From contig CAZRSX010000001.1 in NCBI GenBank assembly GCA_964602865.1, positions 19,940 through 83,939 on the forward strand: a stretch of 64,000 bases of DNA, read 5' to 3'. This document shows positions 36,987 to 42,925 of the stretch, piece after piece. Both the position numbers and the translations under genes were made by a program. This stretch comes from an uncultured Candidatus Saccharibacteria bacterium (GTDB taxonomy: Bacteria > Patescibacteriota > Saccharimonadia > Saccharimonadales > JAGQNJ01). Every line of letters starts with the position of its first letter. The first letter of the stretch is position 1. Below the pieces are notes generated by a model, which was not told the DNA's origin, ran no database searches, and saw only the letters and a list, made by a program, of their open reading frames with translations.

Positions 36987-37038
36987 GAAGAACCCGGCCC
37001 CTTTCGAGGGCCGGGTTTCTAACGTCGCGCTTTTGGCG
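36987..37038. repeat. repeat A (52 nt), a perfect inverted copy of 61188-61239. Contains a GC-rich hairpin and ends in the TTTTGGCG core
   Basis: GAAGAACCCGGCCCCTTTCGAGGGCCGGGTTTCTAACGTCGCGCTTTTGGCG. Its reverse complement is identical to 61188-61239. Confidence 0.95.
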
Positions 37039-37182
37039 CAATTCTACAACCGCGCTCGAACCTATTTTAGCCTGGAAGCCTGAGAAGTCTCGCCTCCCAA
37101 AAACCACACCTTTTGATTTGTTTTTTTGAGAGATCTCCCGGCTGAGATTCTTAGAAGTTGAAAAAGGTGGTTGGGTTTTTGG
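37031..37182. repeat. repeat B, left copy (~150 nt), inverted relative to 40861-41010
   Basis: 37031-37170 is the exact reverse complement of 40871-41010 (140 nt). The outer ~10 nt differ by a 2-nt indel. Confidence 0.95.
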
Positions 37183-37289
37183 ATTCGCGAAATTTTTTAT
37201 GCAGTCCGTAGACCCGTACCTAAGCAGCAACAAGAATAGTCGATGAATAGGCACCCCTACAGATGCGCGTTTCTAGTGAGCTACGGTTA

Positions 37290-37598
37290 TCAATGTAACT
37301 TAATCTCTGTTTTATTCTCAGCAAAATCATGGAGTACTGCGCCGAGGAGTGTCTGATAGGGTATATTACCGCGCTTTGCTTTTGCCTTTATCTTAATGAG
37401 GTCAGCTTGCTTAACACGCAAAGTAACGGGCTTGCTGGTCTGTAACTCGATATGACGTTTTGCGGCTGCTTCAGCTTGTTTCTTTACCGCTTCAAAGTTA
37501 TCGACAGATTCAAATTCACCTCGTTCCAGAGCATTCTCAAGAGCTTGCTCTTCATCATCTAGAACTAGGTTGGTGTAGGGGTTGAATGTATCACTCAT
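37290..37598 (-). CDS. BrnA-like antitoxin (second copy)
   Basis: 102 aa. VTLRVKQADLIKIKAKAKRGNIPYQTLLGAVLHD. Confidence 0.7.
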   Translation of the reverse strand: MSDTFNPYTNLVLDDEEQALENALERGEFESVDNFEAVKKQAEAAAKRHIELQTSKPVTLRVKQADLIKIKAKAKRGNIPYQTLLGAVLHDFAENKTEIKLH

Positions 37599-37881
37599 GA
37601 TTATCTCCTTGAATATATTTACGTTTTAAAACTCTACTGGGATAGGCTGTTTTTAGGAAAACTTCTTTAGTCTTAGGATTGATGACATAAGGAACTGCAT
37701 AAACGTAGGTGCGGATACGCACCACGTATACTCGCTGATGAGGATATTTTTGATTTGGATGGGTAATATCGTCAAGTAAGTTACCGGCTTTGATAGCCAA
37801 GATAATCTCATCAAACCCAACACCTCGCATAGCTTTTAATAATTGATTCTTTTCTTCGTTGAAAGATATATCAAAAGCCAT
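37591..37881 (-). CDS. BrnT-like toxin (second copy)
   Basis: 96 aa. Shares LLDDIxHPxQKxYxxQRxxVV...FLKTxYPSR with 31409-31693. 8-nt overlap with the antitoxin gene. Confidence 0.6.
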   Translation of the reverse strand: MAFDISFNEEKNQLLKAMRGVGFDEIILAIKAGNLLDDITHPNQKYPHQRVYVVRIRTYVYAVPYVINPKTKEVFLKTAYPSRVLKRKYIQGDNHE

Positions 37882-38234
37882 ACGTACATTATAGATAAGT
37901 GTACATCTATTGTCAATACACTTTTATTTTTTACCTTCCCTGATATAGGTAGGATTGACAGTATACCCCGATTATCTTAATTACTCCACCGACACCCAAG
38001 CTATCTTAGTTCTTTTTTCTCTATATCTTTCCTCTTTCTTTTCTCCCTCTCTTTCTATATAAATATAGAGGAGAAGATATGAAGCGAGTGATGGATGAGT
38101 ATGTGTAGATGTTTAGGTATAGTGAGTTATAGAGTTAACTGTGTTAGTGATGGTTTAGCTAGATATGTGAGTAATTTAGTTGGTAAATTTAATGTTAGTT
38201 TAGTGCATATTGGTAATGATCTGAAGGTAGGCAT

Positions 38235-40340: not shown

Positions 40341-40793
40341 TTATTCAAGAAACTGTATGCTATCCAAATTTCCGACCTGTTCAATTGCTGTTTCAATTTC
40401 CATAGCTTTTTGGGTTGTATCATAACAAGCAACCGAACTTCGTTCATCATAGCCATCATATTCCAAAGCCATAACACTTGTAATAGCGTTAAATGGTAGA
40501 CCGGCTGTTTCTAAAGCAGTTCTTACTGCTTCAGTGCCTACACCCAGGGCTTGCTCTAGGGTTTGTTGATCTTGATAGGACATACAAATCTGAATCCTAT
40601 CATGGCCATTCTTATCAGTATTCACAGTAACCATTGGTTCTAATTCTGAACCCAATGAAAACTTTACAGAGCCAGAAATAAACCCGTTAGTATTCTGGTC
40701 GTTACCCAAGCCAAGCTGCACAAAAAATGATAAAGACCACCATGCCGACCGCTTATATACCTCAGGGTTTGATATGGGCACAAACTCACTCAT
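40341..40793 (-). CDS. hypothetical protein
   Basis: Trimmed to MSEFVPISNPE (ATG at complement 40791-40793). The longer form begins inside repeat B. Confidence 0.45.
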   Translation of the reverse strand: MSEFVPISNPEVYKRSAWWSLSFFVQLGLGNDQNTNGFISGSVKFSLGSELEPMVTVNTDKNGHDRIQICMSYQDQQTLEQALGVGTEAVRTALETAGLPFNAITSVMALEYDGYDERSSVACYDTTQKAMEIETAIEQVGNLDSIQFLE

Positions 40794-40860
40794 TGTTTCT
40801 AGTATACATAAGTTGATACTCACAATTCCCGACCGCCTCTGCGCCCTGGCGCAGGCGAAC

Positions 40861-41010
40861 CCAAAAACCACCACCTTTTTCAACTTCTAAGAATCTCAGC
40901 CGGGAGATCTCTCAAAAAAACAAATCAAAAGGTGTGGTTTTTGGGAGGCGAGACTTCTCAGGCTTCCAGGCTAAAATAGGTTCGAGCGCGGTTGTAGAAT
41001 TGCGCCAAAA
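40861..41010. repeat. repeat B, right copy (inverted)
   Basis: See 37031-37182. Ends in the core CGCCAAAA (41003-41010). Confidence 0.95.
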
Positions 41011-41158
41011 AGAAACTTTTTTTGAAATTGTCGTCCAAACGGGCGGCTTTTTCTTTGGTCTTTTGCAGCTGAACCCAGATGTTTTCTTGGGGGGAGTGAG
41101 ATTTTGCCCGCGGCAGGAGCCGTGCTTTTTTGTTTTCTGGTAAAATAAAGAGGCACAC
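40958..41158 (-). pseudogene. 3'-terminal fragment of a second large-serine-recombinase gene (about 45 codons)
   Basis: The minus-strand frame reads ...ENKKARLLPRAKSHSPQENIWVQLQKTKEKAARLDDNFKKSFFLA. This parallels the LSR1 tail ENKKAWLLPRPKTLSSQESIWVQLQKTKEKAARLDDNFKKSFFLA. No upstream recombinase body is present. Confidence 0.45.
41003..41138. repeat. repeat C, left copy (136 nt), inverted relative to 42673-42808
   Basis: The first ~79 nt are identical to the reverse complement of the right copy. An in-frame ~18-nt divergent patch follows, then similarity resumes. Confidence 0.9.
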
Positions 41159-41266
41159 AAGTTAACAGGATTTTCCTATTTTTATGGCTTTAGATAGCCG
41201 TCTCGTACAATCTGGGAATTTCCTAGCTTGTGTGCAACGAGGCGGCTATTTAAGTTAGGGGTAACT

Positions 41267-42925
41267 ATGAGAAGCCGAGAAAAATACTTTATATACGCTC
41301 GTAAGAGTACCGATGTTGAGGACAAACAAGTTTTGTCTATCGAGGCGCAGATAGCGGAGTTGAGAAAGTACGCCAAAGATAACCAACTAACGGTAGTAGA
41401 CACTATTATCGAAAAGAAGTCCGCCAAAGTGCCGGGACGTCCGAAGTTCGGCTCAATGCTCGCTCGTATTGAAGCTGGCGAAGCCAGCGGGATCATCTCG
41501 TGGCATCCTGATAGGCTTGCTAGAAACAGCATAGACGGCGGACAGATTGTGTATTTGCTCGATCAAACACACTTGCAGTCGCTCAAGTTTCCGACGTTCT
41601 GGTTTGAGAATACCTCTCAGGGCAAGTTTATGCTGTCTATTGCGTTCGGGCAGAGTAAATACTACATCGACAACCTTGCCGAGAACACCAAGCGTGGGTT
41701 GCGCCAGAAAATCAGGCGCGGTGAGTTTCCGGGGCTTGCGCCTATCGGGTATATCAACGATGTACGGATTCATACAATAGCTGTAGATAAACGCCGTGCG
41801 CCTCTCGTCAGACAGGCTTTTGAACTATATGCACAAGGAGATAAACGACTGGTAGATATTGCCGACTTTTTGGCGAGCAAGGGTGTAACGACGAGAGGCG
41901 GTTTGACCCTCAAGAAAGACCGAATTAAGAAAATGCTGACCAACCCGATATATTATGGACATTTCCGTTACGCTGGCGAGGTGTATGAGGGCAAGCATAC
42001 ACCGATTATTGCGAAGAAGCTGTTTGACCGTGTACAGGCTACGCTGGAACGGCGAGGACACAAACGTAAGGGTATGAACGAACCGCAAGCCCTGTGTGGC
42101 CTGTTAGCGTGTGGTGGCTGCGGTATGGCTATTACAGCTGAAAGGAAAGTAAAGCACCAGAAAAACGGCAATACTCACGAGTATGTGTATTATCGTTGCT
42201 CGCGGAAGCATAAAACAATTGTCTGTAAAGAACCGACTATTACTGAACCTGACCTTGTAGCGCAACTATCCGGCATCTTGTGGGGCTACGCCCTGCCGAA
42301 GCCGTGGACGGTGGAGCTAGAAACAATGCTAACAGAGGACGAAAAGAAAGCAGAACAGAGTTCTGCGGTGTTTATCGCTGACGCACAGAGTAAAGTACAC
42401 GGCTTACAGAGCAAACTTCAGCGGTTACTCGATAGCTACCTCGACCAAGATATTGACCAAGACACGTACAGGGCGAAACAAGCTGAATTGATGTCTGAGA
42501 AAAAGTCATTAGAGGAACAAATCGGCAAGCTCACGCTTGCCGGTGCAGCTTGGGTTGAACCTATGCGCCAGTGGCTGAAACAGGCAACTGACCTCAGTAA
42601 AATCGCAAAGAACGCCGAACCAGTAGCAATAAAACAAGCGTTTCTGCAAATGGACGGATTGAACCTGTCTTTAGAAAACAAAAAAGCGTGGCTCCTGCCG
42701 CGTCCAAAAACCCTTTCTTCCCAAGAAAGCATCTGGGTTCAGCTGCAAAAGACCAAAGAAAAAGCCGCCCGTTTGGACGACAATTTCAAAAAAAGTTTCT
42801 TTTTGGCGGAGAGGGAGGGATTCGAACCCTCGGTACCAATTGCTCGGCACAACTGTTTTCGAGACAGTCCAGTTCAACCACTCCTGCACCTCTCCACATC
42901 AATGTATTGTAGCAACAGTGGCTGA
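41267..42925 (+). CDS. large serine recombinase (LSR1); the 3' end reads through repeat C, the core and the antisense of tRNA-Ser(CGA)
   Basis: YFIYARKSTDVEDKQVLSIEAQ (catalytic Ser region), WHPDRLARN, Cys-rich zinc-ribbon CGLLACGGCG...YYRCS, and a coiled coil. ATG at 41267 is preceded by AGGGG. The true C-terminus is uncertain. Confidence 0.85.
   Translation: MRSREKYFIYARKSTDVEDKQVLSIEAQIAELRKYAKDNQLTVVDTIIEKKSAKVPGRPKFGSMLARIEAGEASGIISWHPDRLARNSIDGGQIVYLLDQTHLQSLKFPTFWFENTSQGKFMLSIAFGQSKYYIDNLAENTKRGLRQKIRRGEFPGLAPIGYINDVRIHTIAVDKRRAPLVRQAFELYAQGDKRLVDIADFLASKGVTTRGGLTLKKDRIKKMLTNPIYYGHFRYAGEVYEGKHTPIIAKKLFDRVQATLERRGHKRKGMNEPQALCGLLACGGCGMAITAERKVKHQKNGNTHEYVYYRCSRKHKTIVCKEPTITEPDLVAQLSGILWGYALPKPWTVELETMLTEDEKKAEQSSAVFIADAQSKVHGLQSKLQRLLDSYLDQDIDQDTYRAKQAELMSEKKSLEEQIGKLTLAGAAWVEPMRQWLKQATDLSKIAKNAEPVAIKQAFLQMDGLNLSLENKKAWLLPRPKTLSSQESIWVQLQKTKEKAARLDDNFKKSFFLAEREGFEPSVPIARHNCFRDSPVQPLLHLSTSMYCSNSG
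42673..42808. repeat. repeat C, right copy (inverted), ending in the core TTTTGGCG
   Basis: See 41003-41138. Overlaps the last 5 nt (CGCCA, read on the minus strand) of tRNA-Ser(CGA). Confidence 0.9.
42804..42895 (-). tRNA. tRNA-Ser (anticodon CGA), CCA encoded
   Basis: Minus strand: GGAGAGG-TG-CAGGAGTGGTTGAACTG-...-ACTGT-CTCGAAA-ACAGT-long variable arm-GAGGGTTCGAATCCCTC-CCTCTCC-G-CCA. Hand-folded cloverleaf. Confidence 0.9.

Follow-up and report, generated by a model that had tools for sequence, protein, structure and literature searches.

Why would a mobile element that already sits in a chromosome keep a second, intact copy of its own attachment site, and keep it inverted? The question is raised by a 64,000-nt stretch of DNA from an uncultured Candidatus Saccharibacteria bacterium (contig CAZRSX010000001.1), here called the window, whose positions are used for all coordinates. 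Positions 37031-42808 are one integrated mobile element of 5.8 kb, located in a tRNA-Ser gene, and its sole conserved gene encodes a large serine recombinase (LSR). The reading that we favor, at a probability of about 0.6, is that the element is an LSR island of tRNA 3′ ends with an inverted spare attP, and that its recombinase gene spans attP and is rewritten on integration.

Attachment sites and inverted repeats of the island

A repeat search and a site alignment reproduced the arrangement given in the initial annotation, in which four sites have one core in common and exchange long flanks in pairs. The core, CGCCAAAA, is used at 37031 (-), 41003 (+), 42801 (-) and 61188 (+), and three repeats converge on it: the inverted repeats B (37031-37178 / 40863-41010; 148 nt including the core, 98% complementary) and C (41003-41138 / 42673-42808; 136 nt, 92%), and the two copies of A (36987-37038 / 61188-61239; 52 nt, 100% identical). 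When aligned, site 1 reads B–A, site 2 B–C, site 3 tRNA–C and site 4 D–A, D being the end of a neighboring island, element 2. By itself the octamer is weak evidence, with 11 copies in the window against ~4 expected, and its significance rests on the long flanks. The 3 mismatches between the B arms are all distal, 142-145 nt from the core, and the 11 between the C arms all lie 80-121 nt from it, so that the core-proximal 79 nt of C are identical.

The core consists of the GCCA end of the integration target, tRNA-Ser(CGA), which ARAGORN places at 42804-42895 (-), plus AAA. Site 3 (core 42801-42808, -) is attL, in which the tRNA is joined to C, and site 1 (core 37031-37038, -) is attR, in which B is joined to flank A. 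At site 1 this flank (36987-37030, -) is a chromosomal terminator hairpin, with its stem at 36991-37017 in a terminator scan, and represents the right half of attB; its other copy lies at 61196-61239. A Logan contig from SRR16798008 (L164), a data set in which this strain is present, matches 34617-37016 at 100% and ends 30 nt into A, which backs the junction between the left flank and A with a separate assembly. Site 2 (core 41003-41010, +) is a second complete attP, inverted relative to sites 1 and 3, and lies between a cargo module, K, bracketed by the inverted B arms, and a recombinase module, L, bracketed by the inverted C arms. Apart from its orientation, it is precisely the attP expected from a cross of sites 1 and 3. 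LSR elements are expected to have a single attP, but here an intact inverted copy is retained in the integrated state, and the excised form would carry two.

The recombinase reading frame continues across attP

LSR1 (41267-42925, +) starts with the ATG at 41267, has 552 aa as integrated, and is identical to the NCBI-derived protein P0009. Its Resolvase (PF00239), Recombinase (PF07508) and Zn_ribbon_recom (PF13408) domains all score above the Pfam cut-offs. A structure model of a full-length relative has the usual domains, a coiled coil at residues 345-428, a beta hairpin at 467-476 and a helix at 489-502, and the features of the LSR class are thus present. The A118 integrase aligns to residues 205-423 of the family recombinase only, which makes the last ~100 residues a family-specific extension.

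The downstream C arm (42673-42800, +) is the 3′ coding end of LSR1. From there the open reading frame (ORF) passes through the core and runs on for 39 codons in tRNA antisense, so that all residues after ..FFLA are tRNA antisense. The minus strand of site 2 holds a copy of the last ~45 LSR1 codons, within the C arm, and continues in the same frame through the core into the B arm, where 14 further codons, QFYNRARTYFSLEA, lead to a stop at 40958. These spare tail codons occupy 41002-40958 in the inner B arm (40863-41002, +), the left half of the internal attP, and positions 37039-37083 of the outer B arm (37039-37178, +) encode the same tail and stop, read inward from the core. In an ORF scan the site 2 copy appears as a 66-aa ORF (40958-41158, -), composed of the last ~45 recombinase residues and the authentic tail and homologous to the small ORFs P0001-P0008. 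Judging from its sequence, it is most likely a stored 3′ gene end. A separate small gene at site 2 was considered and rejected: the recurring GTG ~38 nt past the arm belongs to helix A of the conserved recombinase leader described below, and a leftward promoter is not evident.

Joined to this tail, full-length LSR1 would end in ..FFLAQFYNRARTYFSLEA. The tail frame is open in 89 distinct elements, with the motif L-V-x-(L/I/F)-Y-(N/D)-x-(A/I/V)-R-T-(Y/H/F)-F-x-x-N, and it varies in a coding-type manner. In a codon analysis, entropy at positions 1, 2 and 3 of the Thr codon was 0, 0.09 and 1.41; the Arg codon alternates between CGA and AGA, the Phe, Tyr and Asn codons vary at their third positions, and the T at the second position of the hydrophobic codon is invariant. 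Because the frame is conserved with variation of this kind, the coding sequence of the authentic recombinase C-terminus spans attP and is divided between the C arm and the B arm. We also considered the conserved B-arm stretch GGTTCGAGC as a mimic of the tRNA T-loop and rejected this, as it is the reverse complement of the Ala-Arg-Thr codons, in which the Thr wobble position and the Arg CGA/AGA choice vary synonymously. Protein coding is therefore the main constraint on this stretch, and a dual role is possible.

The tail is present in 14 of 120 cluster representatives, and the others end in tRNA antisense (..EREGFEPS.., ..GLEPS..); ~85% of database representatives end in such residues, like the integrated LSR1 here. 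The integrated gene thus ends in tRNA-antisense sequence, and site 2 keeps a spare 3′ end. Since integration replaces the C-terminus of the recombinase, the internal attP gains a plausible purpose.

Conservation of the layout in Patescibacteria

With the LSR1 protein as query we obtained 80 loci from species-representative genomes and 80 from metagenomes, nearly all from Saccharibacteria or other Patescibacteria, and analyzed them by self-comparison and tRNA scans. Of the 97 near-full-length copies for which 450 nt or more of upstream sequence is present, 91 have their recombinase gene enclosed by an inverted repeat; the gene's 3′ end forms one arm, and the second is found ~150-300 nt before the start. 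At 67 of 82 loci the 3′ arm is directly adjoined by a tRNA gene. The abutting tRNA is convergent with the recombinase in every case (91/91), and 31 different anticodons are represented. Where at least 9 kb of upstream sequence is available, a second repeat pair usually (36/43) abuts the upstream arm, with an overlap of 3-10 nt, and encloses 0.9-8 kb of variable cargo that is almost never common to two loci. Among 102 distinct C pairs 56 have perfect arms, as do 19 of the 29 B pairs, and C-arm lengths are similar across the family (~135 nt).

Every locus with both repeat pairs follows the three-site logic of the window: site 3 reads tRNA–C, site 2 B–C and site 1 B–flank. As in other LSR elements, attL and attR each combine one half of attP with one half of attB, joined at a short common core. 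In relatives the core is the N-CCA end of the tRNA, for example CACCA(A), TACCA or AGCCA, and measures only 3 nt where CCA is not encoded. The C arm starts with a replacement terminator hairpin for the tRNA. The window has two terminator-like hairpins, at 41030-41047 and 41109-41124 in the upstream C arm (41011-41138, +), which repeats the recombinase 3′ end in inverted form, and the downstream arm supplies the replacement terminators on the tRNA strand. The outer flank of site 1 is usually a hairpin, and similar hairpins, often palindromes that include the CCA end, follow unoccupied tRNA genes. Terminator palindromes with the encoded CCA in the stem (e.g. ..CACCAAGTT...AACTTGGTG..) were noted at unoccupied tRNA genes in L007, L017, L019, L023, L025 and L048.

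The tRNA 3′ ends abutting the recombinase arm and the terminator-like flank at site 1 bear out the proposal in the initial annotation that sites 3 and 1 are products of attB (tRNA–terminator) and attP (B–C). Its suggestion of serial integrations plus decay, by which site 2 would be a functionless leftover junction of a second, partly deleted related element, fares badly in the same comparison. It is true that the two C arms of the window, with their 11 differences, resemble two alleles of relatives (P0002-like at site 2, L165-like at site 3), and tandem arrays of related elements exist. Across Patescibacteria, however, ~94% of family loci have an inverted, intact attP in this same position, with arms that are mostly 99-100% identical and similar in length, and a decay product would not be so conserved. 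Because the architecture is family-wide, an accident of serial insertion and decay in one genome is ruled out, and we regard decay as a very unlikely source of site 2. That the two C copies resemble different alleles suggests exchange between related elements, and the identity of the arms, as far as sequence comparison goes, points to frequent gene conversion or recent copying.

Based on these comparisons, the layout is a trait of a very large Patescibacteria family, for which a search of a protein collection returned at least 7,909 proteins at E≤1e-30. Viral contigs gave only two partial matches. One member, P0157 (WP_376754431.1), is annotated in Candidatus Southlakia epibionticum, a cultivable, naturally transformable Saccharibacterium. 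Full-text literature searches and a Saccharibacteria genetics paper yielded no description of an inverted second attP, an ORF crossing attP, very long repeats or many tRNAs per enzyme, and the family is apparently undescribed.

Natural variants, mobility and target range

Variants of the layout were found in short-read assemblies, from which all evidence in this section is taken. On a 10.9-kb MEGAHIT contig (L169), tRNA-Ser(CGA) at 8920-9007 (+) is followed by a 135-nt C arm and by a recombinase gene that reads away from the tRNA and has the authentic tail. L170, from another sample, encodes an identical protein, with a B arm and then 5 kb of cargo downstream. L011 and L098 resemble L169 in having a flipped recombinase module. 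The cargo can also be reversed: between the second element of L006 and the element of L020, the recombinase modules are colinear and 85% identical, and the common cargo, 88% identical, is inverted. Longer chains exist as well. Three consecutive segments flanked by inverted repeats were found in L008 (5262-11530), and L021 (7657-14891) and L167 (1367-10268) each contain two elements in tandem, of which the outer recombinase, being directly next to the inner element's B arm, retains its tail. In these three chains the newcomer went into the B–flank or tRNA–C junction of an element already in place.

Mobility is indicated by a near-identical element in two different metagenome-assembled genomes (L006 and L007), with 7,986 nt of cargo at 100% and recombinase modules at 99.9% identity, and with differing outer flanks. 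Single clusters at 90% identity (P0112, P0106, P0079, P0048 and others) carry up to seven tRNA-antisense tails in addition to the authentic tail, which means that nearly the same enzyme sits at many different tRNA genes. The targets of near-identical enzymes appear to have in common only the NCCA end and a generic T-arm. As read from these contigs, recent mobility and natural orientation variants are shown.

Do such variants make the element a switch? The other option in the initial annotation was an invertible, shufflon-like multi-site system, and part of it holds: the layout is conserved, and both segments are seen the opposite way round in relatives. Switching in situ would be a further step, carried out by the LSR itself or by homologous recombination. 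The option is on the right track and incomplete, since it misses the continuation of the recombinase ORF across attP. In its strict form, a phase-variation switch of the shufflon or Hin type, the recombinase would act mainly as an invertase on sites 1/2 and 2/3, varying the expression of cargo or recombinase, and mobility would be secondary. Consecutive inverted sites with one common core, the occurrence of K and L in both orientations among relatives and the chains of three or more segments, as in L008, are what such a switch would produce. We nonetheless judge it unlikely. Identical elements at different tRNAs and in different genomes imply mobility, and cargo varies between elements, leaving no conserved invertible gene pair. 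The arms are the same on both sides, so that flipping alters little beyond the recombinase tail, and there is a strong orientation bias, with a ratio of ~91:2 on long contigs. Furthermore, reactions between attP and attL or attR are not known for canonical large serine integrases.

A structured leader upstream of the recombinase gene

The region between the upstream C arm and the recombinase start was compared by alignment and a covariation count. A promoter-like box and structured leader span 41138-41266 (+), with an extended -10-like box, TGGTAAAAT, at 41138-41146 and a ribosome-binding site at ~41257. Three helices were recognized: A (41153-41161/41227-41235), B (41194-41206/41237-41249) and D (41212-41217/41221-41226). 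Helices A and B cross and thereby form a pseudoknot, which lies immediately before the ribosome-binding site. The leader is strongly conserved. Across 35 sequences, 98% of helix cells are paired and both partners change in 16 pairs, values that 0 of 500 shuffles reached; slid controls gave 34-48% pairing. An Rfam 15 scan of 41139-41266 found no match even at E≤1. Segments between helices A and B are also complementary to the inner hairpin, which suggests that alternative folds may form. We considered the leader as a guide RNA and rejected this role, as elements with tRNA-Ser and tRNA-Arg targets (the window element, L010 and L171) do not differ in its variable segments, so that the target is not tracked.

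A model for integration and remobilization

In the reading that we favor, recombination between sites 1 and 3 would restore tRNA–A and release a circle, as the geometry implies. Two inverted B–core–C copies of ~280 nt would separate K and L in this circle, which would carry a complete recombinase gene. If the circle then inserted by the attP at that gene's 3′ end, the arrangement seen in the window would result, with the tail swapped for tRNA-antisense codons. Loss of the tail would disable or alter the enzyme and stabilize the insertion; if the tail-less arrangement is such a stable end state, the strong orientation bias is explained. The rarer arrangement, in which the gene is rejoined to its tail and the element becomes mobile again, would arise if the circle inserted by its other attP or if L flipped between the C arms. 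The internal attP would be retained both as a spare 3′ end and as a second site for remobilization, and flipping of K would be a by-product. Inversions could be carried out by the recombinase itself or by homologous recombination (RecA). We infer the circle, the effect of tail loss and the inverting agent.

The circular stage could also be where the duplicated attP serves its purpose, in the manner of the 2-micron plasmid, through isomerization, copy-number amplification or multimer resolution, with arm identity maintained by homologous recombination in the episome. By geometry, the circle excised via sites 1 and 3 must contain two inverted repeats of ~280 nt that separate two unique segments; the homogeneity of the arms suggests frequent gene conversion, and the window element and its close relatives have a Replic_Relax gene. 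We consider this improbable, as most family members are without a replication gene in K, no circular contigs were found among 163 loci, and the recombinase ORF that crosses attP would be left unexplained.

Alternatively, the arms might act as single-stranded DNA. Saccharibacteria are naturally competent (PMC10633639), and after natural transformation the B/B′ and C/C′ stems could fold and rebuild a double-stranded attP from one strand. By geometry the stems would set B–core–C opposite C′–core–B′, and long perfect arms would fit selection for pairing. Against this, serine recombinases act on duplex DNA, and by our reasoning a folded strand recombined with attB would give hairpin-capped chromosome ends. 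Such a role finds no direct support in the sequences and seems hardly credible to us.

Several points weigh against the favored reading of a spare attP and a rewritten gene. Equal use of both attP copies predicts that half of the recombinase genes would read away from the tRNA; in view of the ~91:2 ratio, the model must invoke instability of the full-length state. Opposite orientations of the segments are seen only between relatives and on short-read contigs that may be ambiguous. Tail-bearing forms are almost all on contigs of 1.7-4 kb, which could be assembly-graph paths through repeats, and in L011, L098 and L169, the flipped contigs, the sequence breaks off within a repeat arm; some of the variants may be graph paths rather than real molecules. 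A general assembly artefact is disfavored, because long contigs at ~91:2 in one orientation are unlike random assembler choice. The absence of circular contigs among the 163 loci counts here as well, as does the limit on attP reactions with attL or attR noted above. Comparison of element cargo between loci gave no conserved candidate for a directionality factor gene. The tail itself (residues 511-527) is modeled as the final helix, but with low to moderate confidence and a predicted local distance difference test score (pLDDT) of ~57, and it overlaps a recombinase binding half-site, so that its conservation could partly reflect constraint at the DNA level. Lastly, the identical A flank at site 4 is unexplained by the model.

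A further proposal would extend the model to a pan-tRNA LSR family that governs the direction of its reaction with no directionality factor besides the enzyme. When the element integrated by its 3′ attP, the tail helix would be lost and the element locked; the inverted spare attP would allow the full-length enzyme to be regained, by an inversion or by the other mode of insertion, and the island to move again. The leader pseudoknot would add a layer of control, and since the target would be the generic tRNA 3′ end, many tRNA genes would be open to one enzyme. We offer this only tentatively and consider it a possibility less probable than its opposite.

Cargo, element 2 and flank A

Cargo module K (37179-40862) was annotated with Pfam. 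It encodes a CopG-like antitoxin (37290-37598, -), its 96-aa partner (37591-37881, -), a Replic_Relax protein (38235-39101, +) in common with the close relatives L171 and L172, and two ORFs without assigned function (39181-40329, +; 40341-40883, -).

Element 2 (48796-61195) is a conventional 12.4-kb island without inverted repeats, and its target is tRNA-Ser(TGA) (48706-48795, +; ARAGORN). Its left end forms a fifth related junction at the 3′ end of that tRNA (48795; CCGCCA followed by GATAGAAACT), which resembles site 3, and site 4 (61188-61239, +), which reads D–core–A and holds the second copy of flank A, is its attR. LSR2 (49013-50488, -) is 35% identical to LSR1. The remaining genes encode a prepilin-peptidase-like protein (51395-52057), an AAA ATPase matching IetA defence models (52057-53127), a 615-aa protein with no family match (53133-54980), an Hsp70-like protein of 844 aa (54980-57514) and a ParB-N6/N4 methyltransferase fusion (59435-60892), and the element may be a defence island.

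Flank A was considered as a part of the element and rejected, as L171 and L172, inserted at the same tRNA-Ser(CGA), carry outer flanks unrelated to A; for the same reason A is taken to be the native chromosomal terminator. Its two copies are identical over 52 nt though the two tRNA-Ser genes are only ~75% identical, and no further copy exists in the window. Being inverted, they bound a 24-kb block (37031-61195) that contains both islands, four tRNA genes and purF. We tried inversion histories that could have produced the two copies (between sites 1/4, between sites 3/5, and D–C with tRNA–A), and two A copies are still required under any conservative scheme. The alternatives are that the same terminator is native to both tRNA genes and that an unrecognized copying event took place.

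The island in L165 is 90% identical to that in the window and sits at a tRNA-Ser gene (8266-8355) whose 3′ 34 nt are identical to tRNA-Ser(CGA) (42804-42895). This tRNA has the anticodon TGA and adjoins the comF/HSP20/pilin neighborhood that flanks site 4 in the window, a context that hints at rearrangements around tRNA-Ser genes. Synteny is conserved there: window positions 62710-64000 and L165 positions 3594-6785 both have a run of small paralogous genes like type IV secretion system (T4SS) pilin/TrbC next to HSP20 and a comF-like gene. An exact-protein look-up of comF returned no match, and those of purF and DUF7144 matched short Logan contigs only.

Significance and comparison with known systems

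Two inverted attP copies and a recombinase gene rewritten by integration would, in a family of this size, amount to an on/off or directionality control built into the element. The family seems to be one of the main carriers of small cargo in Patescibacteria, including toxin-antitoxin pairs, methylases and defence genes, and little is known of gene exchange in this group. The presence of near-identical enzymes at many tRNA genes bears on how integrases read their targets and on their use in genome engineering. The member in Candidatus Southlakia epibionticum offers an experimental system for a direct test of the model.

Among known systems, the tycheposons of Prochlorococcus are similar in that small cargo islands, with variable cargo and a conserved integrase module, occupy tRNA genes and form tandem arrays. 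They differ in their enzymes, 910 of 937 using tyrosine recombinases (bioRxiv 10.1101/2020.12.28.424599), and inverted attP copies or modules flanked by inverted repeats have not been described for them. Archaeal integrases of the SSV type have attP inside the int gene (PMC8371274). They too use tRNA targets, and integration partitions or alters the integrase gene; in contrast to LSR1, they are tyrosine recombinases whose gene is split near its 5′ part, and there is no spare inverted copy. The yeast 2-micron plasmid resembles the circle that we infer from geometry, with two long inverted repeats that each contain a recombination site and two unique segments, one of which encodes the recombinase. 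Its FLP enzyme is a tyrosine recombinase, however, and the present elements integrate into tRNA genes.

Shufflons (R64 Rci) and the Hin, Gin, Cin and Pin systems likewise have several inverted sites with a common core that bracket adjacent segments, and inversion would likewise swap the C-terminal end of a protein. In Salmonella the hin gene is itself located within the segment that Hin inverts. Rci belongs to the tyrosine recombinases, whereas Hin and Gin are small serine recombinases that need Fis and an enhancer; the present enzyme, of 528-552 aa, is a large serine integrase, the unit is a mobile island, and the swapped end is that of the recombinase itself.

The closest likeness is to the LSR integrases (Bxb1, phiC31, A118/LI, SPbeta, TnpX and CcrAB), which have the same Resolvase, Recombinase and zinc ribbon domains and a long coiled coil. 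They also have a short core common to attP and attB, the same attL/attR junction pattern and insertion at a defined gene end. By the textbook account, enzymes of this class are single-site and strictly directional, and require a separate factor for reversal. The present family differs in its second intact attP, inverted inside the element, in a recombinase ORF that crosses attP and loses a conserved tail on integration, and in repeats of 135-280 nt instead of the usual ~50-bp att sites. One enzyme, as defined by clusters of at least 90% identity, occurs at up to 7 tRNA genes, and a directionality factor is not apparent. The element is probably best regarded as a widespread variant of known LSR elements, with the enzyme and the att logic of that class and the mechanism proposed here.

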